The notes beneath the pieces were generated by a model, which saw only the letters and a list, made by a program, of their open reading frames with translations, was not told the DNA's origin and ran no database searches. A stretch of DNA of 11,773 nt from Planctomycetota bacterium (GTDB lineage Bacteria; Planctomycetota; PLA2; JAEUHO01): contig CBDCWP010000023.1 in assembly GCA_965223505.1 (NCBI GenBank), positions 1 to 11,773 of the forward strand, given 5' to 3'. Each line of letters starts with the position of its first letter. The first letter of the stretch is position 1. Below, piece after piece: positions 267-11,773 of this stretch. The position numbers and the translations under genes were made by a program.

Positions 267-2456
267 ATGTTGCGCGGTTTGTTTTCACGCTTCGGCTGTG
301 TGGCCATGGTGTTCTGCCTGGTCATCTTCTCGTGCCTGACGACCTCCTGCTCGGGAGGCGGCGTCGCGGCGCGGGAGATGGTGCTGGTCGAGTTCCTTCT
401 CGTTGATCGTTCGTTGCGTCCCGTTTCTCCCACCGGAACGGAAGACCTTGCGCGCAACGCGCAGATCCTCTTCGTGTTCTCGGAGATCGTGAACGCGAAC
501 ACCGTCACCCAGCAGACGATCCAAATTCGGTACGGTCCTACGTTCCAGAGCGTGCCGGAAGGCTCGTTCTCCGTGAACGGCAACCAGGTCCGTTTCGACC
601 CGACGGTGACCGCCCAGGGTCAGCCGAACCCGTACGGGTTCCGCCCGGTCGAGCGCTACTCGGTCGACATCCCCAACTTCGAGGAGCAGGATCAGGTCGT
701 CGAGAACGCCGACTTCGACCCGAACCTCACGACCTTCTTCACCTCGTACCGGACGTCGGACGGCTTCCTGCGCGAGCTCATTCCGCCGGAGATCCTGGAC
801 GTGTTCTTCATTCCGGATCCGGATCCGCTGACGAAGAACATCCCCGGCAACGGCATCCTCGCGTTCCTGTTCACGGAGCCGATGCAGATCGGTTCGTTCA
901 TTCAGGGGCCGAGCGACGACAGCGGTCCGGACGTCAACACCACGATCGACGTTCGCTACACGCCCGGGGATCAGATCAACATCGACAACCTGGTCGCGAA
1001 CTTCGCGGTTCCCGGCACGTTCTCGCAGAACGCCGCCGCGACGATCGCCTTCTTCCGTCCGACGTTCTCGTTCGGCAACAAGAAGCTCGTATTCACCGCG
1101 CAGGTCTTCCAGGGCCTGACGGATCTCTCGGGCAACCTGTTGATCAACCCGCAGAGCTACGGCCCGTTCACCTGTGACGGCACCGGCATCGAGACGGGCA
1201 AGGTCATCACGGAGGACTTCCTCACGCAGGATCCGAACGTCATCGACTTCATCGAGACGGACGCCGACTGGGGCGTGTCGGAGCCCGGTGTGCTGAAGAG
1301 CGTGCCGATCTCGAGCCGGAACGCCTACCTCTTCGGCTATCCCTACGCGGACGGCCTCGCGGGTGGCGGCGGCTCGTTGAGCGGCAACGGCCAGTACGCG
1401 GCGATCGTCGACCCCCTCACGGGCGCCGACCTCAACAACTTCGTCACGGGCATCAACCCGCCGACCTCGGCTGGTCGTCGCGCCATGTGGTCGTACTCGG
1501 ACACCGAGATCGGCGCACCGGGCTCGGTCACCGCGATCGGATGGGGTCCGGACAGCAACGCGACGTTCGCCGCCTTCCACCAGCAGATCATCATGCGGAT
1601 GGGCTTCCAGGAAGGCAACTCGATGACGCTCGGCACGAGCTTCTCGGGCAACTACGCGGGCGGCGCCGACGCGATCCTCTACAACGGGTCGTACTCCATC
1701 GTGCAGGCCGCCAACCACGGCAACACGCCGGGGCACCCGGTCACGCCGCACCAGGGCCCGTATCTCGACAACTTCGGGTGTACGAGCCCGAACATGACGT
1801 CGATCGCCAACTGGAACCTGCCGCTGTTCAGCGCCACGGGATTCTACGGCTGGCCTGAGCTGACGCAGTTCTTCGAGTGGGACGCCGGCGACGAGAACGT
1901 CGACAACGACAGCGTGCTGATCTTCGACGTGAGCGTCACCGAGGGTGACAGCTTCCAGCAGTTCCGCGCGTGGTTCGGTGTCACGTTCCCGTGCTCGGGC
2001 GTGCTCATCACGGGCTTCCCGGGACGCCGCCTGTACGCGACGTTCGAGGAGGATCAGGCCAACCCGACGACCAATCTCACGGCCGGGATCCTGAACCCCG
2101 AGCCGACGATCATGGACATGTGCTTCACGATCACGAAGCGCGTGAGCGTCGCGCAGTCGACGTTTTACCCGGCAGCGGTCACGTTCGGCCCCAACACGGA
2201 CTACCGTCCGGCGGAGCTGAGCCCGCAGGTGCAGGTCGGCGGCGCGCAGCTGGTCGTGGAGTTCCAGGGCGCCGAGATCGTCGACATGGACAACATCACG
2301 ATCAACGCGGCCGGGCAGTCGACGGGCTGGACACAGGACATCGACGACCTGGACGGAATGGATCGCGTGCGCTGGCGCGTGTTCCTGATCGCGAACCTCG
2401 AGGAGCTGACGCTGGCCAGGTTGGTGCAGCTGCGCATCCCGATGGTGAGCAACTAG
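267..2456 (+). CDS. Secreted lipoprotein, 729 aa, with two Ig-like (Big_5/PF13205-type) domains, an unknown central beta-rich domain and a conserved C-terminal domain (paralog A)
   Basis: Long ORF with strong C/G third-position bias and a good RBS. Basic-hydrophobic signal ends LTTS-C28-SGGG. Big_5-like patterns: 'NAQILFVFSEIVNANTV...SFSVNGNQVRFDP...YSVDI' and 'LAFLFTEPM...IAFFRP...GLTDLSGNLL'. C-terminal motifs shared with the next gene. Confidence 0.85.
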   Translation: MLRGLFSRFGCVAMVFCLVIFSCLTTSCSGGGVAAREMVLVEFLLVDRSLRPVSPTGTEDLARNAQILFVFSEIVNANTVTQQTIQIRYGPTFQSVPEGSFSVNGNQVRFDPTVTAQGQPNPYGFRPVERYSVDIPNFEEQDQVVENADFDPNLTTFFTSYRTSDGFLRELIPPEILDVFFIPDPDPLTKNIPGNGILAFLFTEPMQIGSFIQGPSDDSGPDVNTTIDVRYTPGDQINIDNLVANFAVPGTFSQNAAATIAFFRPTFSFGNKKLVFTAQVFQGLTDLSGNLLINPQSYGPFTCDGTGIETGKVITEDFLTQDPNVIDFIETDADWGVSEPGVLKSVPISSRNAYLFGYPYADGLAGGGGSLSGNGQYAAIVDPLTGADLNNFVTGINPPTSAGRRAMWSYSDTEIGAPGSVTAIGWGPDSNATFAAFHQQIIMRMGFQEGNSMTLGTSFSGNYAGGADAILYNGSYSIVQAANHGNTPGHPVTPHQGPYLDNFGCTSPNMTSIANWNLPLFSATGFYGWPELTQFFEWDAGDENVDNDSVLIFDVSVTEGDSFQQFRAWFGVTFPCSGVLITGFPGRRLYATFEEDQANPTTNLTAGILNPEPTIMDMCFTITKRVSVAQSTFYPAAVTFGPNTDYRPAELSPQVQVGGAQLVVEFQGAEIVDMDNITINAAGQSTGWTQDIDDLDGMDRVRWRVFLIANLEELTLARLVQLRIPMVSN

Positions 2457-2462
2457 AGACAA

Positions 2463-2502
2463 CCTCACTCGCCCGCGCTCTTCGGAGCGTGGGCGGACGA
2501 GG
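2463..2502 (+). other. Stable stem-loop with C(UUCG)G tetraloop just downstream of paralog A, with no U-tract
   Basis: CGCCCGCGCTC-TTCG-GAGCGTGGGCG (2470-2495; 11 bp including one G.U), extendable by CCTC/GAGG to 2463-2502. Confidence 0.75.
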
Positions 2503-2644
2503 GGATGAGAGCGTCGGTCGTGTCCGGCACGGCGGCGCTCGACCGGCGGCGGCCCAATGGGCGGCCGCCGGGGTGGTTTGGGCAGAATGCGGAATGGGGC
2601 GGGCCTTCAGGCGCGCTCCGTTTCGGCTACGGGAATTGAGAACC

Positions 2645-2648
2645 GGAG
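2645..2648 (+). promoter_or_regulatory. Shine-Dalgarno site for the 2658 start
   Basis: GGAG 9 nt upstream of ATG2658. Confidence 0.65.
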
Positions 2649-2657
2649 AACTCACGA

Positions 2658-5600
2658 ATGCGTCGTCCTCGTTTGTCTTGCGTCCTGATGCTGACGCTGA
2701 CGCTCGCCGTCTCCGTATCCATGACCTCGTGTTCAGGTGGTGATGGCGACGGCAACCAAGACCTTGTTCTAGTCGGTACGAATCTGCCCGGCATTGCAGG
2801 CATCGCGTTGAATCAGCCGCTGATCCTCACGTTCAGCGCGCTCGTCGATCCCTTCTCGATCACGCCCGACACCTTGCGCGTCGTCGGCGCGCAGGGGCCG
2901 TTCTTCGAGACCACGGTCGTGGACCGCAATCTCGTCGCGTTGCTTCCCGCAATCGCGAACTTCGAGAACTACTCGGACTCCGGCTACGCGCCCGGCGTCG
3001 AATACACCGTCAGCTTCGCCGTGTTCCCGGCGCCGAGCACGATTCGTACGCCCGACGGGAAGCCGTTGATCCAGGCGTTCAGCTCGTCGTTCACCACGTT
3101 GCCCTTCCCGGGATTCATCGAGACGCGGCGTCCGATCAACCACGGGCTGCCGCCCAGCCTCGGCGGGACGAGCGACGACGAGGGCTGCCTGCAGAACGTC
3201 GGCAACCTGCTCTTCCAGCCTCCCGGCATCGTTCAGACCGGAACGGGGCCCGGCGCGACGTTGTTGTGTCTCCAGAACGAAGGCCAGCCTCGCATCATCG
3301 AGCCCGAGAGCGAGCCGCGGCACGACGCCATCAACGTCGGGACTCCGTCGGCCGTGAACCCGAGCTTCATCGACCTGCCCGCGCTGCGCGTGCGGGGGAA
3401 CGAGGCGTTCGACCCGCTCACGACGGCGCCGTACACGCCGACCACGCAGCTCGGCACCAACGTCCAGCTCTGGCACGTCGCCAACAAGGACGGCTCGCCC
3501 GTGGCCGGCGGTCCCCAGCAGGTCGAGACGAACAAGCCGTTGATCGTGCAGAGCCTGGCGCTCGGCACGCAGGTCATCCTGGTTCCGTCGCGAGCGGTTC
3601 CCCAGGGCATCTACATGATCAACATCACCGGCAACGTCACCGACATGGCGGGGTTGCCGTTGCGCATCGACGACCGGCCGGACCCGGCGCCCGGTGGCTA
3701 CGACGTGTACGAGGCGGCCCCGGCATTCCAGCTGGCCGTGCCCGCGGGATACCGCATCTACTTCAAGACGCTCGAGCTGCCCGGCACGGCGCAGGCGATC
3801 GACGAGAGCTTCTCCAGCAACGCGCGCGAGTGGGGCAACGACACCGTCGCCTCGACCGGCGTGCAGGAAGACGGGCTCTATACCTCGACGTTGCCCGACC
3901 CGACGCCGCTTCCGGCCGGGACGTACGACGGCGATCCGGACCTCCCCTTCCCCTTGGGGCCGACGCCGGCGTTCACGCTGCAAGACACCAACGCGCTTTG
4001 TGGTCAGAGCACGACCGCGAACTGGAACGGCGGCAACCGCTTCCTGAACTTGCCGAACCTGCAGCTCAACCCCGATGCGTCGGGTGGCGGCGGTGAGCTC
4101 AAGGCCGTGTGGAGGCCGTACTGCGGTTCGGGCAACGACGGCATCTTCGACAGCAATCTGCCGCCGAACAACCCGGGGCCCGGCGACGACATCCTGATCG
4201 ACAGCGATGCCACGTCGATCGACGGCATCCTGGAGTACGACTCGTTCAACCTGCGGCCCGGCGACAAGATGACCGTGAGCGGCAGCAAGCCGCTGCTGAT
4301 TCTGGTGCGCGGGGACTTCTGCTGCGAGGGCGAGATCGTCCTCGACGGTGGAGACGGCGGTCCCGGCCTGAACACCGACGGCACGAGCCTCTACAACAAT
4401 GCGGGCGCGACGCGCACGTCCGGCATCGGCGGCATCCCCGGCCCGGGTGGCTCGCCCGGTGGTGACGGCGGCGATCCGAGTCTGACGTTCACCGCGGGTG
4501 GAACCGGCAACCCGGCGTCCACGCCGATCGGTCTGTTCGGCCCCTACCTGTCCACGATCACGCCGATCACGGCAGCCGCGCAGTCGTTCTGCTGTCCCGG
4601 TATCGAGGGCGGCGGTGGCGGCGGGTTCGGGGAAGCCGGAACGTCGGCGACCGAGCAGGGCGGTGTGCCGCCCAACGGCGGCCTGGGCAACGGCGGGCCG
4701 GTCTTCGGCGACCCGCTCTTCCTGCGGGAGATCGCGTTGTTCATTCCGGATCGCATCTACGTGCCGAACGCCAACATCTGCGGCGGCAACGGCGGCACGG
4801 GGGGCGCGGCCGACGACGACCTCGCGGCCAACGCGGACGACGACATCGGCAACCTCGGCTCGCAGGACGGCGGTGACGGCACGATCAGCCTCGCCAGCGC
4901 CGACGACGGCGGGGGCGGGGGCGGCGGCGGCGGCGGCGCCCTGTGGGTGATCTGCTGTGGCGAGGTCCGCATCAAGGCGGGTGGATACATCCACGCCAAC
5001 GGCGGCAACGGTGGCAACACGTACGGAGCAGCCGATCAGATCCTCGATCTGGGTGACGACGGCGAGTTGGGCGGCGGCGACGACTTCGTCGTCGGCGCGA
5101 ACACCGCCGCGGCGCCTTCGGGCGACGGCGGCCCCGGCGGCGGCGGTTCCGGCGGCGCGATCTTCCTGGTCGGTGGCACGGGCTGCATCGTCGATGCCGG
5201 TGGCCGGCTCGAGTGCCTCGGCGGCACCGGCGGCGGCGCGCTCGACCCGACGTTGACGGGCGGCAACGGCGGCAAGGGCCGCGTCCTGCTGATGAACCTC
5301 GCCGGCGGACCGGCTCCGGTCGACAACTCCAACCCGAACGACGTCGATCCGTCCGCGGTCACAGGGACCTTCGTTCCGACCGTGGACACCGCCAGCGTCG
5401 GAACCAGCATCTGGCTCGACCTGTTCACGCCGACGGCCGACTTCTTCCCGGCGGGCCCGAACGCACCGTTCTTCAACACGAACTTCAACTTCCTGAACCT
5501 GAACGGCGGCGCCGGCTTGTTCAGCGCGACGTTGGAGTTCCAGGGCGCGAACGACTTCCTGCCGCTGCCTCCGGGCGGACCGCTCTCGCCGGCATCCAGC

Positions 5601-5768
5601 GACGGACTGACGGCCTGGGTCGGCATTGCCGGCATCGACGCGATCGACATGAAGCGCTTCGTCAGGTTCCGCTGGCGGTTCTCCGTCGATCCTGCGTTCC
5701 CGGGCTTCGGCCTGACCGCGTTGCCGATGCCGACGATCCTGGATGTGACGATCCCGTATCAGAACTAG
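2658..5768 (+). CDS. Secreted lipoprotein, 1036 aa, with two Ig-like (Big_5-type) domains, a glycine-rich central domain and the conserved C-terminal domain (paralog B)
   Basis: Signal MRRPR+hydrophobic ends SMTS-C25-SGG. Big_5-like 'LNQPLILTFSALVDPFSIT...PGVEYTVSF...DGKPL...SSSFTT' and 'VILVPS...YMINITGNVTDMAGLPL...IYFKT'. GGxGGxG runs alternate with beta-strands at about 4345-5290. C-terminus EFQGA...RFVRFRW...IPY. Confidence 0.88.
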   Translation: MRRPRLSCVLMLTLTLAVSVSMTSCSGGDGDGNQDLVLVGTNLPGIAGIALNQPLILTFSALVDPFSITPDTLRVVGAQGPFFETTVVDRNLVALLPAIANFENYSDSGYAPGVEYTVSFAVFPAPSTIRTPDGKPLIQAFSSSFTTLPFPGFIETRRPINHGLPPSLGGTSDDEGCLQNVGNLLFQPPGIVQTGTGPGATLLCLQNEGQPRIIEPESEPRHDAINVGTPSAVNPSFIDLPALRVRGNEAFDPLTTAPYTPTTQLGTNVQLWHVANKDGSPVAGGPQQVETNKPLIVQSLALGTQVILVPSRAVPQGIYMINITGNVTDMAGLPLRIDDRPDPAPGGYDVYEAAPAFQLAVPAGYRIYFKTLELPGTAQAIDESFSSNAREWGNDTVASTGVQEDGLYTSTLPDPTPLPAGTYDGDPDLPFPLGPTPAFTLQDTNALCGQSTTANWNGGNRFLNLPNLQLNPDASGGGGELKAVWRPYCGSGNDGIFDSNLPPNNPGPGDDILIDSDATSIDGILEYDSFNLRPGDKMTVSGSKPLLILVRGDFCCEGEIVLDGGDGGPGLNTDGTSLYNNAGATRTSGIGGIPGPGGSPGGDGGDPSLTFTAGGTGNPASTPIGLFGPYLSTITPITAAAQSFCCPGIEGGGGGGFGEAGTSATEQGGVPPNGGLGNGGPVFGDPLFLREIALFIPDRIYVPNANICGGNGGTGGAADDDLAANADDDIGNLGSQDGGDGTISLASADDGGGGGGGGGGALWVICCGEVRIKAGGYIHANGGNGGNTYGAADQILDLGDDGELGGGDDFVVGANTAAAPSGDGGPGGGGSGGAIFLVGGTGCIVDAGGRLECLGGTGGGALDPTLTGGNGGKGRVLLMNLAGGPAPVDNSNPNDVDPSAVTGTFVPTVDTASVGTSIWLDLFTPTADFFPAGPNAPFFNTNFNFLNLNGGAGLFSATLEFQGANDFLPLPPGGPLSPASSDGLTAWVGIAGIDAIDMKRFVRFRWRFSVDPAFPGFGLTALPMPTILDVTIPYQN
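4908..4937 (+). repeat. In-frame poly-Gly codon run (Gly10, ending in (GGC)6)
   Basis: ggc ggg ggc ggg (ggc)6 inside paralog B. Confidence 0.9.
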
Positions 5769-5792
5769 CGAGCCTTGCTCGCGGCAACGGTT

Positions 5793-5815
5793 TGGCCGTG
5801 ACGAATGGCCGTGAC
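5793..5815. repeat. Perfect 10-bp direct repeat TGGCCGTGAC x2 with a 13-bp period
   Basis: Copies at 5793-5802 and 5806-5815 in the intergenic region. Confidence 0.85.
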
Positions 5816-5820
5816 CACTT

Positions 5821-5858
5821 GGAAGCCCCGGGGCCTGCGCCTCGGGGCTTTCTTTCTC
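5821..5858 (+). terminator. Rho-independent terminator downstream of the lipoprotein pair
   Basis: AAGCCCCGGGGC-CTGC-GCCTCGGGGCTT stem (5823-5850, one G.U) running into the U-rich tail TCTTTCTC. Confidence 0.75.
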
Positions 5859-5883
5859 TCGAGGAAGGGTCTTCCCAGTCGCG

Positions 5884-6954
5884 ATGAGCTCGAGACGCCC
5901 CGGACTGCTGGTACGCCTGCTCGCGACGCTCGTCGCGCGGCTGTACCTGCGGCGCCCGCAGATGGCGGAGGTGATTGCGATTCGTTACGGCTCCCTCCGC
6001 GCCGTTCTGGTCGGCGTCGCCAACGAGGTGGCCTACCGCCTGGGGGCGTCGCGGGCGCCCGGGATGCTCTCCGCGAACATCGAGCTCACCAACCACTGCA
6101 ATCTCAAGTGCAGCTTCTGTCCGACGGGCAACGGCCTCATGCAGCGGCCGCGTGGTTTCATGGACGCGGACGTGTTCCGCAAGGCGCTGCGGGGTGCGGG
6201 ACCGCTCGAGTTCGTGCTGTTGTTCCAATGGGGCGAGTCCCTGCTCCATCCGACGTTCACCGAGCTCGCCAAGGAAGCAGCCCGGCGTGCCCGCACGTTG
6301 GTGACGACGAACGGAACGTTGCTCGACGAGCGCCGCGTCCGGCAGGTCATCGATGCCGGTCTCGATCGGGTGACCGTCTCGATCGACGGTGACGCCGCCA
6401 CGCACGAAGACGTGCGCGGTGTGCCGTTGCAACGTACGCGCGACGGGTTGGATCGACTGCTTGCAGCGCGTGACGCGGAGCGGCCCGACATGGCGGTCGA
6501 CGTGTCCATGGTGATCGCGCCCGAGACCGAGCGTGCGGCGGCGTCCTTCCGCGAGACGTTTGCCGATCGCGTGGATCGCGTGCAGCAGATTCCCCTTCTC
6601 ACGGAGGGTGAGCGACGCACCCGCTGCCGCGAGCCTTGGCGCAGCGGCCCCGTCGTCCTCCAGGACGGCCGCGTGACGGTGTGCTGCGTCGACCACGACG
6701 GGGATCTGGCCGTCGGCGACGTGCGCGAGCAGTCGCTCAAGGAAATCTGGAACGGTCCGCGCATGCGCGCGGTGCGGAAGGCGCACGCGTCGGGCGAGCT
6801 TCCGCCCCTCTGCGCCAAGTGCACGGAGTACCCGACCGACGCGGCGGCGCCGCGCTTCTCGAAGCGCGAGGAGGCGTCCGCCGATGCGCCGCACCTCAAG
6901 CACGCGAAGCCGCGGCCGAAGCGCCGGCGCGTCGCCGAGAGATCGACGCCGTGA
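5884..6954 (+). CDS. Radical SAM protein with C-terminal SPASM/twitch (PF13186-type) domain, 356 aa
   Basis: IELTNHCNLKCSFC (CxxxCxxC, 6097-6120), WGESLLHP, TTNGTLL, VTVSIDG. Twitch-like CREPW...DGRVTVCC...GDV...SLKEIWNG...CAKC. The start is uncertain (weak RBS; in-frame ATG5962 is an alternative). Confidence 0.9.
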   Translation: MSSRRPGLLVRLLATLVARLYLRRPQMAEVIAIRYGSLRAVLVGVANEVAYRLGASRAPGMLSANIELTNHCNLKCSFCPTGNGLMQRPRGFMDADVFRKALRGAGPLEFVLLFQWGESLLHPTFTELAKEAARRARTLVTTNGTLLDERRVRQVIDAGLDRVTVSIDGDAATHEDVRGVPLQRTRDGLDRLLAARDAERPDMAVDVSMVIAPETERAAASFRETFADRVDRVQQIPLLTEGERRTRCREPWRSGPVVLQDGRVTVCCVDHDGDLAVGDVREQSLKEIWNGPRMRAVRKAHASGELPPLCAKCTEYPTDAAAPRFSKREEASADAPHLKHAKPRPKRRRVAERSTP

Positions 6955-8045
6955 AACGGCTGCGTCGCCAGTATCTGGACATCCTCGGCGATCGCGTGGC
7001 TCGCGGCGACGTCCGCTCGATCGCCGGTCTCGGATGGCGCTGGGTCGCGACGGCGCTCAGCCCCTGGACCCGGCGGCCGATGGCCGGGCCGGCGTTGGGC
7101 ACGCTGCTCGTCACCTACCGGTGCGACCTGCGCTGTGCGGTCTGCGACCTGCCGGCGCGGGCGGCGGCGCGGCGGCGCAACGGCGAGCGCGAGCTCGAGA
7201 CCGGCGAGATGTTCGACGTGTTGCGTGACATGAAACGCATCGGGACGGCCGGCGTCGGTGTGACCGGCGGTGAGCCGATGTTGCGCGAGGACATCTTGGA
7301 CCTCCTCGCGTACGGAAGCCGTCTCGGCATGCACATGCATCTGAACACGGACGGCTTCCAGGTGGCCGAGCAGGCCGACGCGTTGATTCGAACGCGCGTC
7401 CGGTCCGTGAACGTCTCGCTCGACGGCCACGACGCGGCCGTCCACGACAAGGCGCGCGGACGCAAGGGGTCGTTCGATCGCGTGCTGGCGGCGTTCCGCG
7501 CGCTCGCGGCGTCGCGCGGCCGTCGTCGCTTGCCGCGTCTGACGGCGGTGACGGTGCTGTCGCACCACAACGTCCATCGCGCGGGCGACGTCGTTCGTGT
7601 CGCGCTCGATGCCGGCGCGGACCGCGTCGGCGTGATTCCCGTGCACGACTTCGGCCACGGCGCCGTCGCGCCCGGCGACGAGGCCGTCGAGGCCGGCATC
7701 GCCGAGCTCAAGCAGCTGCACGCGAAGGGCGTGATCGACAACAGCCTCGCGTATCTCGACCTGCTGCCGCGCGCGTTTCGCGGCGGCGCGTCGCCGCTTC
7801 ACTGCTACGCGCCTTACGCCAGCGTCGTGGTCGACTGCTACGGCGACGTCTATCCGTGCTTTCCGTTGATGGAGCGCAAGGAGCCCGCCGGCCGGATTCC
7901 GTTGGCGGCGCTGTGGCGATCCGACGCCTACGCCAAGGTGCGCGACGAGCTGTCGGGGTGCACGGCGTGCCTCTGGAACTGCCACACCGAGCTGAACCTC
8001 GCGCTGCCGCAGCGAGGCGCGGCGGCGGCGGGAGTCGGCGCGTGA
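6951..8045 (+). CDS. Radical SAM/SPASM-domain protein, 364 aa (GTG start; the ORF track start at 6636 is too far upstream)
   Basis: GTG6951 overlaps the upstream TGA (GTGA). VTYRCDLRCAVC (7122-7145), TGGEPMLRED, LNTDG, VSLDG..HD..RG..GSF. C-terminal CYAP...DCYGDVYPC...CTACLWNC. Confidence 0.9.
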   Translation: MKRLRRQYLDILGDRVARGDVRSIAGLGWRWVATALSPWTRRPMAGPALGTLLVTYRCDLRCAVCDLPARAAARRRNGERELETGEMFDVLRDMKRIGTAGVGVTGGEPMLREDILDLLAYGSRLGMHMHLNTDGFQVAEQADALIRTRVRSVNVSLDGHDAAVHDKARGRKGSFDRVLAAFRALAASRGRRRLPRLTAVTVLSHHNVHRAGDVVRVALDAGADRVGVIPVHDFGHGAVAPGDEAVEAGIAELKQLHAKGVIDNSLAYLDLLPRAFRGGASPLHCYAPYASVVVDCYGDVYPCFPLMERKEPAGRIPLAALWRSDAYAKVRDELSGCTACLWNCHTELNLALPQRGAAAAGVGA

Positions 8046-9190
8046 ATCTCGGGTTCGCCAAGGTGCTGGACCGGGTCGCGGGCAGCCTGCTCGGACACGC
8101 GATCGCGACAGGCGATGCGATCGTCGAGACGATTCGTGCGCCGACGCCCGTCGAGCACGTACGCCGGCTGCTCGTGATCAAGTTCTGGGGCCTGGGCAAT
8201 TGGGCGCTACTCCGTCCGGTCGTCCGGGACCTGCGCGCCCGCTATCCGGGCGCGCGCCTCACGATCGCGACGCTCGACACGAACCGTCGGTTGGTCCAGG
8301 ACCTCGCAGACGATCTCTTGCTCGTGCGCGCCGACAGCGGGATCACGATCGCCCGAGATCTCGGGCGCGCGGTCCTGTGGCTGCGCCGCCGCCGACACGA
8401 CCTCGCGCTGGACTTCGAGCAGTTCTCCCGCACGGGGGCGTTGCTCGCCCGCTGCGGGGGCGTTGCGCAGCGCATGGGGTTCCGTTCCGGCAGCGCCGGG
8501 CGCGACCGCCTGTATACGGTCACCGTTCCCTTCCGACGCGACGACCACGTCACGCGGTCGTTCCGTGATCTCGCCGAAGCCGGCGGGCTGGCGAAGGGGG
8601 CCTACGTCCCCGGCGGGCTCCGCGTCGATGATGAGGCGCGCGCGTCGGCGGCGCGGTGGACGACGGGCCGCCCCTTCGTGGTCCTGCACCCCGGCAGTGG
8701 CGACAACTTCCCCGGACGGCGCTGGTCCGAGAGCGGATTCGTCGCCGTGGGTCGCACCGCCGCCGCGCACGGCCACCGGGTGTTCGTCACCGGCGGGCGT
8801 CAGGAAACCGAGCTCGCGCAGCGGGTCGCCGACGCCATCGGCGACTTCGCGGCTTCCCTCGCGGGACGCCTCGGCATCGACCAACTCGTGGCGCTGCTCG
8901 ACGACGCGACCGCGCTCGTCAGCAACGACACCGGTCCGGTTCACATCGCCTCGCAGCTCGGTACCCCCGTCCTGGCGTTCTTCGGACCGAACACGCCCGT
9001 CCTGTACGGCCCGCTCTCCGAGGGCTCACAGTCGTTCTTTCGCGACCTGCCGTGCAGCCCGTGCCTGCGCAACAGCAACTACCGGTCGAGCCGCTGCCGC
9101 ATCTTCACCTGCATGGCGTCGATCCCCACCGGCGAGGTCGCAGCCGCCCTCGTACGTCTGATGGACCGCGCGAGGAGCGTCGTCCGATGA
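8042..9190 (+). CDS. Glycosyltransferase family 9 (WaaC/WaaF heptosyltransferase-like, GT-B fold), 382 aa
   Basis: GTG8042 in a GTGA overlap. LLVIKFWGLGN, R.RYPGARLT, DLALDFE, VVLHPGSG..RRW, LVSNDTGPVHIASQLGTPVLAFFGP, CSPC. Confidence 0.9.
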   Translation: MNLGFAKVLDRVAGSLLGHAIATGDAIVETIRAPTPVEHVRRLLVIKFWGLGNWALLRPVVRDLRARYPGARLTIATLDTNRRLVQDLADDLLLVRADSGITIARDLGRAVLWLRRRRHDLALDFEQFSRTGALLARCGGVAQRMGFRSGSAGRDRLYTVTVPFRRDDHVTRSFRDLAEAGGLAKGAYVPGGLRVDDEARASAARWTTGRPFVVLHPGSGDNFPGRRWSESGFVAVGRTAAAHGHRVFVTGGRQETELAQRVADAIGDFAASLAGRLGIDQLVALLDDATALVSNDTGPVHIASQLGTPVLAFFGPNTPVLYGPLSEGSQSFFRDLPCSPCLRNSNYRSSRCRIFTCMASIPTGEVAAALVRLMDRARSVVR

Positions 9191-11310
9191 GGCGGGACCG
9201 CTGGATCGCCGTTGCCGTGGTCGCGCTGGCGACGTTCCTGGTTCACGCGGGCACGTTCGACGCGGGCTTCGTGTACGACGACCACCGGTTCATCGAGTTC
9301 AACCCGGCGATCGAGTCGATCCAGCTCGGCCGCTACTTCAGCGACCCGGTCACGGCCTCGAATCCGGACGGCATCGTGCCGGACATCTACCGTCCGCTGC
9401 GAACGCTCCTCTTCGCCTTCGAGTACGCGGTCTTCGAGGACGCGCCCGCCGGCTGGCACGTCGTCAGCGTGCTGCTTCACACGCTCAACGCGGTGTTGGT
9501 GCTGCTGCTCTTGCACAACCTGCTCGCCGGCGGTTGGATCGCGCCGGCGGCGGGCGCGTTGCTCTTCGGCGTGCACCCGGTGACGAGCGAGAGCGTGGCC
9601 TGGGTGTCGTCGCAGGGTGACCTGCTCGCCATGACGTTCATGTTGTCCGGCCTGTTGGTGATGCGCCGGGCCGGCGTCGGACGTACGGTCGGCGGCGTCG
9701 CCTTGTTCGCGTTGGCGTGCTTCTCGAAAGAGAGCGCGCTCGTGCTGCCGGCGCTCGTGCTGATGCACTGGATCGTCTTGCGGGCGCACGGTGAAGACGA
9801 CGTACCGTCGACGTCCGAGACGGTCGGCCGCATCGCGGCGCTGGCGGTCGCGGCAGTCGCGTACATCGTCCTTCGGTCGAACGTGGTCCCGTCACCGTCG
9901 GAGCTCGGCTGGATGGCGCAGGTGCCGCACACCGACGGCGTCGCCGGAAGCGCGCGCGGCATGTCGGCGGGCCTGGTGTGGTATGCGCAGATGCTGTTCT
10001 TCCCGAACGGCTTCACGTTCGACATCCGCTACGACATTCCACTGCGCTGGTCGGATCGCGAGGTCGTGCTCGGGCTGGGCATCCTCGCTACGGTGCTCGC
10101 CGCCGGGCTGTGGGGGCTTCGGCGCCGGCCGGTGCTGGCATTTGCGACGCTGGGCTTCCTCGCTTGCCTGGTTCCCGTGAGCAACGTCATCGTGCCGCTC
10201 AAGGCATTCGTCGCGGAGCGCTTCCTCTATCCCGGACTGCTGTGTGTCGTCGCGGGGCTCGCTTGGGCGCTCCTGCGTACGCCTGAGCGCTGGCGAACCG
10301 TGGCGCGTGTCGCCGCCGTGCCGGTTCTCGTCGTGCTGGCCTTCCTCACCGTCGATCGCAACGAGGCGTGGAGCGACGAGGCCACCCTCTGGCGAACGGT
10401 GCGGGAGCACCGTCCCGACAACGCGAACTCGTACCAGGGGCTGGCGTTCGAGTACGCCAAGGAACACCGCGTCGCCGACGCGGAGCGGGCGTTCCTCTCG
10501 TATCTGGAGTTCAACCCGAACGACGGCAAGTCGCAGGCCATTCTGGGCGACCTGTTCGGCGACGTCGCGGCGTCCCTGCGGCTGTCGGAGGCCGCAGCCG
10601 CGGGCGGCGGCGTCTCGAACATCGACCTGCGCCGCAAGCAGGCGCGCGTGGCGCAGATCTCGGCGTACCGACGCGCGCTCGAAATCTGGGCGCAGTACGG
10701 ACTCGGCCAGGGGCGTGGCTCGCCGGAGCAGGAGCGGCGCATGCTCCTGAAGTGGATGGACGCGGCCCTCGAGCTGGGCGACGTCGCCGAGCAGCGGTTC
10801 GCCAACGATCAGCTGCTGCTGCGCGACGGGTTGGACCCGAGCGACACGGAGCGCGTCATGCGCGACGCACCTGTTTCCCGCCGGTTCGCGCGGCTGAATA
10901 TCGCCGTGCAGGCCCTCTTGGCGACGATGGGGGGCCGCGCGATGCCGGAGGACCCGGAGGTGCGCGCCAAGCTCGAGCGCGACCGCGCGGTCGTGCTGCG
11001 CGACGTCGGCCTGGACCCGCGCCGGTCGAGTCCGCAGCTCATGCCCGGCATGAACGAGCGGATCGACCCCGTCTTGAAAGACGCTCTCGAGACGGCGCCG
11101 GGCACCGTCGCGAACCCCCTGATCCGCCAGCTGACCGTGATCAAGATCGGCGTGCTCATGCGGCTCGGAGAGGGCGATCGTGCCCGAGCGTTTCTGCGCC
11201 AAATGATCAAACGCTTTCCCGACGACAAGTTCTTCCAGGAGATGTTCGCCGGATCGAACGCGCGTGCGCCCGGGCCTCCGGCGCCTGCGAACCGGAGGAA
11301 GCCAAAGTGA
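9187..11310 (+). CDS. TMTC-like GT-C membrane glycosyltransferase (protein O-mannosyltransferase-like) with C-terminal TPR/helical region, 707 aa
   Basis: ATG9187 in an ATGA overlap. FVYDD after TM1 (D31-D32, 9277-9282), YRPLRTL, WHVVSVLLHTLN, LLFGVHPVTSESVAW, FSKESA, AERFLYP, RNEAWSDEATLW. About 10-11 hydrophobic segments, then TPR-like 'AERAFLSYLEFNPND...LGDL'. Confidence 0.88.
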   Translation: MRRDRWIAVAVVALATFLVHAGTFDAGFVYDDHRFIEFNPAIESIQLGRYFSDPVTASNPDGIVPDIYRPLRTLLFAFEYAVFEDAPAGWHVVSVLLHTLNAVLVLLLLHNLLAGGWIAPAAGALLFGVHPVTSESVAWVSSQGDLLAMTFMLSGLLVMRRAGVGRTVGGVALFALACFSKESALVLPALVLMHWIVLRAHGEDDVPSTSETVGRIAALAVAAVAYIVLRSNVVPSPSELGWMAQVPHTDGVAGSARGMSAGLVWYAQMLFFPNGFTFDIRYDIPLRWSDREVVLGLGILATVLAAGLWGLRRRPVLAFATLGFLACLVPVSNVIVPLKAFVAERFLYPGLLCVVAGLAWALLRTPERWRTVARVAAVPVLVVLAFLTVDRNEAWSDEATLWRTVREHRPDNANSYQGLAFEYAKEHRVADAERAFLSYLEFNPNDGKSQAILGDLFGDVAASLRLSEAAAAGGGVSNIDLRRKQARVAQISAYRRALEIWAQYGLGQGRGSPEQERRMLLKWMDAALELGDVAEQRFANDQLLLRDGLDPSDTERVMRDAPVSRRFARLNIAVQALLATMGGRAMPEDPEVRAKLERDRAVVLRDVGLDPRRSSPQLMPGMNERIDPVLKDALETAPGTVANPLIRQLTVIKIGVLMRLGEGDRARAFLRQMIKRFPDDKFFQEMFAGSNARAPGPPAPANRRKPK
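11294..11298 (+). promoter_or_regulatory. Shine-Dalgarno site for GTG11307
   Basis: GGAGG 8 nt upstream of GTG11307. Confidence 0.75.
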
Positions 11311-11773
11311 GCCCCGTCCAGTCGCTCCGTGCATTCGCCGGACTCGGTGCGCGCATCCTCGGATCACGCTGGAGCGCGACACGGCCGTTCAAGATCACGT
11401 TCGTGTTGACGGACCGCTGCGACTGCCGCTGCGCGGGTTGCTGGATCTGGAAGAAGCCCAAGGGCAAGGAGCTGTCGCCGGACGAGATCGGCGCGTTCCT
11501 GCGTGATGCGCCGTCGCTTCGGTGGGTCAATCTCACCGGCGGCGAGCCGTTCTTGCGCGACGACATTCCCGAGGTCGTGGACGCGGTGCGCGGCGCGCTA
11601 CCCAACCTCGCCGTACTCGACTTTCCGACGACGGGGCAGCGCACCGACGCGATCCTCGAGGGCTGCGAGCGCATCGCCGGCTTCGGCATTCCCCGTTTCT
11701 ACGTCACGTGCAGCATCGAGGGTCCGCAGGCGCTTCACGACGAACTGCGCGGGCGTCCCGGCGCCTTCGAGAA
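11307..11773 (+). CDS. Third radical SAM protein, partial (runs off the window; absent from the ORF track)
   Basis: Manual translation from GTG11307 (GTGA overlap): MSPVQSLRAFAGLGARILGSRWSATRPFKITFVLTDRCDCRCAGCWIWKK...VNLTGGEPFLRDD...FPTTG...TCSIEGPQALHDELRGRPGAFE. No stop codon. CxxxCxxC at 11418-11441. Confidence 0.92.
   Translation, partial: MSPVQSLRAFAGLGARILGSRWSATRPFKITFVLTDRCDCRCAGCWIWKKPKGKELSPDEIGAFLRDAPSLRWVNLTGGEPFLRDDIPEVVDAVRGALPNLAVLDFPTTGQRTDAILEGCERIAGFGIPRFYVTCSIEGPQALHDELRGRPGAFE

Follow-up and report, generated by a model that had tools for sequence, protein, structure and literature searches.

Could a bacterium glycosylate its surface proteins with a relative of the eukaryotic TMTC enzymes, and which sugar chemistry would feed such a reaction? 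This question is raised by a locus of a Planctomycetota bacterium (assembly GCA_965223505.1, contig CBDCWP010000023.1), whose first 11,773 nucleotides, here called the window, were analyzed as a whole. The original prediction, made from these letters, described a candidate TMTC-type glycosylation system with at least three radical S-adenosylmethionine (radical SAM) enzymes, next to two lipoproteins with immunoglobulin (Ig)-like domains that were seen as possible substrates. We propose that the locus encodes an envelope glycosylation cassette operating in two compartments, the sugar being built and tailored on the cytoplasmic side and transferred on the periplasmic side, probably to the neighboring Ig-like proteins. 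We give this reading a probability of about 0.4. It is carried by the gene content of the locus, by the translational coupling of its enzyme genes, by family and fold assignments, and by the recurrent linkage of the same enzyme families in other genomes.

Gene content of the locus

Between positions 267 and 11773, the window carries seven co-oriented genes, all on the + strand, and no real gene on the − strand. The G+C content is 63–72% across the window. The features are the following:

G1, 267–2456, + strand: 729-aa lipoprotein with N-terminal tandem Ig-like domains (Big_5) and a C-terminal all-beta region of no known family
G2, 2658–5768, + strand: 1036-aa glycine-rich lipoprotein, N-terminus paralogous to that of G1
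Hairpin, 5821–5860 with its T-rich tail, + strand: intrinsic-terminator-like, between G2 and G3, 14 bp of which 10 GC
G3, 5884–6954, + strand: radical SAM enzyme with a SPASM/twitch-like C-terminal domain, CX3CX2C at nt 6097–6120
G4, 6951–8045, + strand: radical SAM/SPASM enzyme, CX3CX2C at nt 7122–7145, start overlapping the G3 stop by 4 nt
G5, 8042–9190, + strand: glycosyltransferase of family 9 (GT9), heptosyltransferase-type GT-B fold, invariant C-terminal four-cysteine motif at nt 9053–9112
G6, 9187–11310, + strand: 707-aa polytopic glycosyltransferase of the GT-C type, C-terminal tetratricopeptide repeats (TPR) at residues ~398–692
G7, 11307–11773, + strand: incomplete gene for the third radical SAM enzyme, truncated after 155 codons where the window stops, CX3CX2C at nt 11418–11441

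The predicted order, i.e., two Ig-like lipoproteins followed by two radical SAM enzymes, a GT9, a GT-C protein with its TPR tail, and a third radical SAM enzyme, is thus the one that we recovered from the open reading frames and from Pfam, and the predicted co-orientation also stands. At every junction of the enzyme genes (G3/G4, G4/G5, G5/G6, and G6/G7), the start codon lies on the preceding stop codon, with an overlap of 4 nt. The annotated starts of G4, G5, G6, and G7 are supported, since the alignments of their orthologues, obtained by tblastn of relatives, all begin at residue 1. The arrangement is not due to chance, because the same order recurs in relatives at 40–75% identity.

The 115-nt spacer between G2 and G3 contains the hairpin, whose GC-rich stem (5821–5852) has a folding energy of −27.3 kcal/mol. 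Comparable hairpins of differing sequences occupy the same place in all 13 of the 13 orthologous loci, with energies from −29 to −46 kcal/mol. Because this conserved terminator-like element divides them, we read G1-G2 and G3 to G7 as two adjacent transcription units, the enzyme operon being separate; its retention at 13/13 loci suggests that the lipoprotein pair and the enzymes are expressed at different levels. The predicted adjacency of the lipoproteins to the enzyme operon holds, but G1-G2 are not part of that operon. In the window, Rfam gave no match and a sigma-70 scan gave 0 promoter-like sites.

The enzymes of the cassette

We assign G6, from its sequence and its predicted fold, to the TMTC/PMT/ArnT-like group of GT-C enzymes, as a divergent bacterial member with a TMTC-like architecture. 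This placement rests on the agreement of three approaches. When the profile of the G6 family was aligned with hhalign to a profile of eight distant bacterial homologues carrying PF08409, PF02366, or PF13231 (i.e., DUF1736- or PMT-bearing proteins), the two matched with a probability of 100 and an E-value of 2.4e-68 over 578 columns. Within the 42 sequences of the family, R69, P70, K181, E182, S183, and R345 are invariant, while D31, D32, Y68, and Y348 are conserved in at least 90%. In the published description of TMTC motifs, these comprise a DD pair in the first outer loop, (SHKS)YRP, KE(T/Q), and ERxxY, and the D31-D32, Y68-R69-P70, K181-E182, and R345/Y348 positions of G6 correspond to the motifs M1, M2, M4, and M7 of that description (PMC7801869). 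Finally, the AlphaFold2 model of G6 (pLDDT 93.5) combines a helical bundle for the membrane part with subsequent helical repeats (residues 398–692), and Foldseek matched it, among TPR proteins, to AglB, AftB, STT3, Pmt4, and ArnT (3wak, 9dlh, 8pn9, 8age, 9i5k, and 5f15), with query-normalized TM-scores of 0.28–0.34 over 707 aa. The likeness of the modeled membrane domain to solved GT-C enzymes is weak but consistent. According to the same TMTC description, ArnT is also the best HHpred template for the TMTCs (PMC7801869).

The TMTC-like label of the original prediction is thus upheld by profile, motifs, and fold, but not by Pfam. Indeed, TPR_19 and TPR_14 exceed their cut-offs in G6, whereas its membrane half has no Pfam match, DUF1736, PMT, and PMT_2 being absent even at E ≤ 10, and PF08409 is present only in distant homologues (P0083, P0092, P0097, P0109, P0114, and P0117). 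Sequence and family-profile searches of G6 against solved structures returned TPR proteins only. We also modeled a complex of full-length G6 with residues 38–330 of G1; it scored 0.00, was run without controls, and carries no weight either way.

The GT9 identity of G5 was readily confirmed, with 114.3 bits against PF01075 for a cut-off of 22. On the other hand, G5 falls under the NCBIfam cut-offs for heptosyltransferases I, II, and III (80.8 vs. 134.6, 75.5 vs. 170.2, and 58.6 vs. 185.3). A profile of 21 G5 relatives retrieved, among solved structures and at E ≤ 1, only 3tov, WaaF, WaaC, and the plant protein PnsB1; no solved autotransporter heptosyltransferase was matched at this threshold, although we take such structures to be in the set. 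A CxxC-x10-C-x4-C motif at residues 338–357 is invariant in the 21 relatives and lies beyond the region that aligns to WaaF, WaaC, and 3tov; this four-cysteine tail could be a metal-binding knuckle. The longer GT9 fusions that we found were joined to GT2, GT4, or TPR domains only and none to a radical SAM or GT-C domain, which is weak evidence.

All three radical SAM enzymes that had been claimed are present, each with its CX3CX2C motif and with PF04055. PF13186 was found in both G3 and G4 and, for G7, in the full 355-aa orthologue of one related locus (L014:12148–13215), where its SPASM domain can be seen. The best solved relative of G3 is BtrN (8e-12), that of G4 is PqqE (8e-16), and that of the G7 orthologue is SkfB (9e-11), BlsE coming next in all three cases. 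No curated NCBIfam cut-off was reached (G3, 91 vs. 400; G4, 90.8 vs. 381; G7 fragment, 33.8 vs. 284), the top models for G3 being "metalloenzyme maturase" ones. Since the NCBIfam scores are far below the cut-offs, we assign no specific radical SAM or heptosyltransferase chemistry to these proteins.

Recurrent linkage across genomes

We scanned species-representative genomes once with the G6 family alignment and obtained 78 loci, which were then searched by tblastn and with profiles built from these 78 loci themselves; the genomic contexts of the G1 family were drawn from loci found in this way through G6. A GT9 and/or radical SAM genes lie beside the G6 relative in 44/78 loci. The cassette is spread over many Planctomycetota, its genes being arranged in four or more different ways, and the 78 loci are distributed as follows:

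Type A, 21 loci: G1-G2-G3-G4-G5-G6-G7, as far as the contig extends
Type B, 8 loci: order as in type A, at 27–47% identity
Type C, 12 loci: G3-G5-G7-(G4)-G6
Locus L030: G3-G5-G6
Type D, 5 loci: co-oriented carbamoyltransferase immediately upstream of G6 or G5
No linked partner, 31 loci: mostly Acidobacteriota and Gemmatimonadota

The linked GT-C proteins are also related to each other. When 76 G6-like proteins were placed on a tree, the 35 rows linked to the cassette grouped together (SH-aLRT 94), and three carbamoyltransferase-only loci (L024, L028, and L067) form their own clade (support 100). Both linked groups share one side of the midpoint root with L032 and five unlinked rows (support 92), while no row among the 32 of the opposite side is linked. 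Along the tree, the label for linkage switches 3 times, vs. 27.7 times when shuffled. This tree was a quick one, built without a mixture model and rooted at its midpoint, with long-branch warnings for L029/L032 and L041/L076, and the shuffles ignore relatedness. The recurrent linkage of radical SAM, GT9, and GT-C genes, for which the original prediction had called, is therefore found. In the literature that we searched, chiefly outside subscription journals, there was no description of this gene combination.

Beyond the window, a convergent carbamoyltransferase of the NodU/CmcH type lies next to G7 in all 13 type A loci with downstream DNA, and in 5 further loci, those of type D, it stands immediately upstream of G6 or G5 in co-orientation. 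Carbamoyltransferases of the NodU type act on sugars and small molecules. In the Pseudomonas lipopolysaccharide (LPS) core, GT9 heptosyltransferases are paired with the carbamoyltransferase WapO, which acts on the second heptose, HepII (PMC8005017). The original prediction had suggested looking downstream for a polyprenol-phosphate-sugar synthase of the GT2 family or a flippase; neither was found within ~9 kb by Pfam on L014, and it is the carbamoyltransferase that is linked to the cassette instead.

The association with the lipoproteins, which the prediction expected to co-occur with the GT-C gene, is complete in some lineages and missing in others. G1/G2 relatives lie upstream of the enzymes in 15/15 of the type A and B loci with enough upstream DNA, and synteny ends immediately upstream of G1. 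In type C, a DUF1573 Ig-like gene directly follows G6 in 12/12 loci by profile, in agreement with Pfam for the 2/2 loci scanned, and a further G6 paralogue (locus L071) adjoins a divergent Big_5 gene. Three kinds of Ig-like neighbor of the GT-C gene are thus seen, i.e., G1/G2, DUF1573, and the Big_5 gene at L071. The type C and type D loci without G1/G2 show that the lipoproteins are not obligatory.

Both G1 and G2 carry an N-terminal signal peptide and a lipobox cysteine, as judged by a PROSITE-style pattern, and the lipobox T-S-C of G1 is invariant in 11/11 orthologues. As for their Ig-like nature, G1 is barely above the Big_5 cut-off (PF13205, 26.2 vs. 23.6 bits), while the G2 of the window has no Pfam match. 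The AlphaFold2 model of G1 (mean pLDDT 76) shows tandem Ig-like sandwiches at residues ~40–320, where the pLDDT is 85–92, and a less certain beta-rich C-terminal half. Foldseek matched it to the Ig domains of LdtMt2, Fabs, and titin, and weakly to surface glycan-binding lipoproteins of Bacteroides (probability 0.6). The G1 family is narrow, with 127 relatives that are nearly all ~715–790 aa long and, where they bear a source name, come from Planctomycetota; a protein Atlas search gave no usable match for G1. The N-termini of G2 and G1 share 26% identity over 159 aa (E 9e-8), and their C-termini are weakly similar (E 0.23). Big_5 exceeds its cut-off in 6/17 G2 relatives, and relaxed Pfam scans of these 17 revealed Big_5 alone, without any beta-helix or enzyme domain. 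In the protein Atlas, G2 matches its own clusters only, in which 46–73% of the members contain Big_5.

Some features of the lipoproteins and of the surrounding loci deserve to be recorded in their own right. A block of G1, GWGPDSNATFAAF (residues 425–437, window ~1539–1580), is nearly invariant in 16 G1 relatives and lies in a low-confidence loop of the model; it includes D-S-N-A-T, which we take to resemble a bacterial N-glycosylation sequon. Glycine makes up 17% of G2, in which runs of up to 10 Gly and several CC pairs occur at residues ~520–880 (window 4200–5300). These runs and pairs lack conservation across 12 orthologues, and we rejected the CC motifs as thioether targets for this reason, while a C..C pair near residues 182–210 is conserved. 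After the carbamoyltransferase, type A loci carry genes for an RsbW-like kinase and a GAF-PP2C phosphatase, which form a partner-switching pair, then for a c554-like multihaem cytochrome, a DUF1573 Ig-like protein, and GlmS (L014 13565–22181); this set is syntenic in up to 13 type A loci. In one subgroup of type C, represented by the Phycisphaerales locus L031, a divergent type I phosphodiesterase/nucleotide pyrophosphatase gene precedes the cassette (L031 5311–6942, − strand), and the genes after that for DUF1573 encode a sulfatase and a GDSL hydrolase (L031 13725–16717). Locus L040 is labeled Pseudohongiellaceae (Gammaproteobacteria), and its cassette and neighbors are 62–86% identical to those of L031, which points to a mis-binned contig or a recent transfer. 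In L024, L028, and L067, the carbamoyltransferase and G6-like pair lies after prfA-prmC and before two response-regulator/GGDEF genes, a housekeeping-like context unlike that of the cassette; a YfhO-like GT-C gene lies a few kb further in L024 and L067, followed by a GT9 gene in L024.

Proposed function and known systems

How could these proteins work together? In the cytoplasm, G5 would transfer a heptose-like sugar from its nucleotide donor to a lipid carrier anchored in the membrane. G3, G4, and G7 would then remodel the carrier-linked sugar through radical reactions like those of BtrN and BlsE, possibly an oxidation, a decarboxylation, an epimerization, or a deoxygenation, and in most genomes a NodU-type carbamoyltransferase would add a carbamoyl group. 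Once flipped to the periplasm, the sugar would be transferred to its acceptor by G6, with its TMTC/ArnT-like catalytic core and its periplasmic TPR arm. The most likely acceptors in this lineage would be the Ig-like lipoproteins G1 and G2, and in the sister lineage the DUF1573 Ig-like protein holds what may be the genomic place of the acceptor. We infer here the identity of the donor, the order of the steps, and the acceptor. We favor a single pathway because the enzyme genes are translationally coupled, because the same enzyme families are re-shuffled together, and because the linked GT-C proteins form one clade. The succession of a cytoplasmic building and tailoring phase and of a periplasmic transfer by the GT-C protein is suggested by the families involved, i.e., GT9, radical SAM, carbamoyltransferase, and GT-C. 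A lipid-anchored acceptor for G5 would be in keeping with its nearest relatives, WaaF and WaaC, which act on lipid-anchored acceptors. A sugar substrate for the radical SAM enzymes would fit with BtrN and BlsE, both acting on sugars, which are the best solved relatives of G3 and rank high among those of G4 and G7. A protein acceptor for G6 is favored by its TPR arm, by the Ig-like neighbors in three arrangements, and by the eukaryotic analogy. Indeed, TPR-bearing GT-C enzymes of eukaryotes are described as targeting Ig-like folds, the TMTCs acting on the extracellular (EC) domains of cadherins and TMEM260 on a domain common to cMET, RON, and plexins.

Several observations weigh against this envelope glycosylation reading. 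The conserved terminator-like hairpin separates G1-G2 from the enzyme genes. G1/G2 are found in 0/9 of the type C loci whose upstream DNA spans 5 kb or more, and no Ig-like gene lies beside the GT-C gene in the three carbamoyltransferase-only type D loci. The original prediction described the lipoproteins as Ser/Thr-containing; their Ser+Thr content is ordinary (15% in G1 and 13% in G2). PF08409 is matched by 0/42 family members (G6 and 41 relatives, E ≤ 1), no Pfam GT-C family is matched significantly by these aligned sequences, and the Foldseek E-values of the GT-C matches are weak (1e-3 to 1e-2). The NCBIfam scores of the radical SAM and heptosyltransferase proteins are all far under the cut-offs. 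The top solved matches of G4 and G7 are the peptide modifiers PqqE and SkfB, and SPASM radical SAM enzymes act more often on peptides or proteins than on other substrates. The proximity of G5 to LPS enzymes speaks against a protein acceptor. Neither the window nor the ~9 kb downstream (Pfam on L014, the genes of which recur in up to 13 relatives) contains a GT2 polyprenol-phosphate-sugar synthase, a phosphoglycosyltransferase, or a flippase. Finally, we know of no precedent for a GT9 acting on a polyprenyl carrier, the loading of sugars on such carriers being known so far, to our knowledge, for GT2 enzymes only.

The same enzymes could serve another acceptor, which may be LPS, at its lipid A or its inner core, or else a different glycolipid or polysaccharide of the envelope. 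The original prediction regarded a modification of LPS or of another glycolipid of the envelope as equally possible. G5 would then heptosylate the lipid-anchored core in the cytoplasm, the radical SAM enzymes and the carbamoyltransferase would tailor the heptose, and an ArnT-like G6 would attach one more residue on the periplasmic side; the surface proteins G1 and G2 would be neighbors or glycan-handling partners and not substrates. Such a scheme would account well for the affinity of G5 with WaaF, WaaC, and the GT9 protein 3tov, and it would find a parallel in the GT9-carbamoyltransferase pairing described for the Pseudomonas LPS core (PMC8005017), as well as in the presence of ArnT, the best template in the TMTC description (PMC7801869), among the fold matches of G6. 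It would also suit the cassette of type C and the carbamoyltransferase-GT-C pair of type D, with its housekeeping contexts, both devoid of G1/G2, the separate transcription of G1-G2, and the weak similarity of G1 to the Bacteroides glycan-binding lipoproteins. However, G6 has kept ~300 TPR residues, an arm that ArnT-type lipid A modifiers are not known to have, and G5 lies below every NCBIfam cut-off for LPS heptosyltransferases. Moreover, an Ig-like gene recurs by the GT-C gene in three different arrangements, and G1/G2 remain adjacent in 15/15 loci over 27–60% identity, though synteny ends upstream of G1. We consider an LPS or glycolipid acceptor a serious competitor but, on balance, rather unlikely.

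We regard as unlikely a further scheme, in which the radical SAM/SPASM enzymes would directly modify G1/G2, or some other protein destined for export, before it leaves the cytoplasm, by cross-linking or residue oxidation as QhpD or anSME do, G5 heptosylating the protein in the cytoplasm like the autotransporter heptosyltransferases and G6 adding a periplasmic sugar. The usual peptide or protein substrates of SPASM enzymes, the nearness of G4 to PqqE and of G7 to SkfB, and the maturase models that top the list for G3 all fit with it, as do the position of the invariant four-cysteine motif of G5, outside the region common to the solved LPS enzymes, and the tight apposition of the lipoprotein genes to the enzymes. 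The candidate targets fit less well: the CC motifs of G2 and at least one cysteine of G1 are not conserved among orthologues, and we saw no conserved Cys- or Ser-rich target motif, only the C..C pair of G2 being kept beyond the lipobox Cys. In addition, type C and D loci retain the enzymes without G1/G2, the G5 profile found no solved autotransporter heptosyltransferase (E ≤ 1), and the linked carbamoyltransferase family acts on sugars and small molecules. No conserved small precursor gene was seen either, the G2-G3 spacer holding the hairpin only; nothing in the open reading frames of at least 60 aa or in this spacer suggested the precursor of a ribosomally synthesized and modified peptide, a search made without a dedicated scan for small open reading frames. 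Last, the genes could be neighbors by descent only, each enzyme belonging to its own pathway. Most of the 78 loci do come from one phylum, many type A loci are syntenic out to GlmS, and the tree shuffles take no account of relatedness. Nevertheless, we judge a mere inheritance of neighbors highly improbable in view of the 4-nt overlaps that tie G3 to G7, the five enzyme families re-shuffled into at least four orders and still together, the synteny that ends immediately upstream of G1, and the single clade of linked GT-C proteins, whose branch lengths exceed 1 substitution per site.

The boldest version of our envelope glycosylation reading would make the locus the first bacterial case of TMTC-type, domain-directed protein O-glycosylation, in which a so far unknown sugar, namely a radical SAM-remodeled and carbamoylated heptose or higher sugar, loaded by the GT9 on a polyprenyl carrier, would be moved to the Ig-like domains of the lipoproteins. 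In this full form, we hold the proposal to be improbable.

How does the cassette compare with known systems? The TMTC1-4 and TMEM260 enzymes, protein O-mannosyltransferases of the endoplasmic reticulum, share with G6 a polytopic GT-C core followed by a non-cytoplasmic TPR domain and the DD, YRP, KE, and (E/D)RxxY motifs conserved in the description of the TMTCs (PMC7801869). G6 also has profile homology to bacterial DUF1736-bearing proteins. The position of the G6 genes beside genes for secreted proteins with Ig-like folds also parallels the cadherin EC substrates reported for the TMTCs. In contrast, G6 is bacterial, Pfam finds DUF1736 neither in it nor in its relatives, and it is linked to a GT9, three radical SAM enzymes, and a carbamoyltransferase that belong to no TMTC pathway. 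A plain polyprenyl-phosphate-mannose donor is unlikely for the predicted transferase G6.

ArnT, in the 4-amino-4-deoxy-L-arabinose (Ara4N) pathway, offers the same general logic: a lipid-linked monosaccharide, tailored in the cytoplasm, is transferred by a GT-C enzyme on the periplasmic side. ArnT is also among the fold matches of G6. It is not known to have a TPR arm, and its pathway relies on ArnC, which is a GT2, together with a deformylase and a flippase; none of these three lies near the cassette, and conversely the ArnT pathway contains no radical SAM enzymes. The actinobacterial Pmt is, like G6, a bacterial GT-C, which glycosylates secreted proteins and lipoproteins from a polyprenyl-phosphate sugar and relies on the GT2 enzyme Ppm1. 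It belongs to PF02366, which G6 does not match, and lacks TPRs. As for the sugar-tailoring side, no solved structure matches G3 better than BtrN, BlsE is matched by all three radical SAM enzymes, and both share with them the CX3CX2C motif and a C-terminal auxiliary-cluster domain. The likeness is however confined to the core (solved structures are matched at 48–57 bits, and the NCBIfam BlsE model at 64 bits where its cut-off is 400), and PqqE and SkfB score equally or better for G4 and G7. The WaaC/WaaF heptosyltransferases and WapO of Pseudomonas resemble the cassette by the genomic pairing of a GT9 with a NodU-type carbamoyltransferase (PMC8005017). Unlike them, G5 is under all the NCBIfam heptosyltransferase cut-offs and has its additional four-cysteine tail, and the cassette contains radical SAM enzymes and a GT-C gene, without genes for lipid A or for 3-deoxy-D-manno-octulosonic acid (Kdo) nearby.

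In conclusion, the families of the parts are already known, and so is the two-compartment logic, from the ArnT, Pmt, and oligosaccharyltransferase pathways. What the cassette brings is their combination, pointing to a way of decorating the cell envelope that has not yet been described. Three co-conserved radical SAM/SPASM enzymes tied to a GT9 and to a carbamoyltransferase suggest a sugar chemistry not described so far, a potential that is real but unproven. Bacterial relatives of the TMTCs are numerous but uncharacterized, and the function of the linked clade is testable because fixed partner enzymes and candidate substrates accompany it. If LPS were the acceptor, the cassette would represent a new envelope modification in the Planctomycetota, whose envelope is poorly understood; if the Ig-like lipoproteins are, it would provide a prokaryotic model for the domain-specific O-glycosylation carried out by the TPR-bearing GT-C enzymes of eukaryotes.

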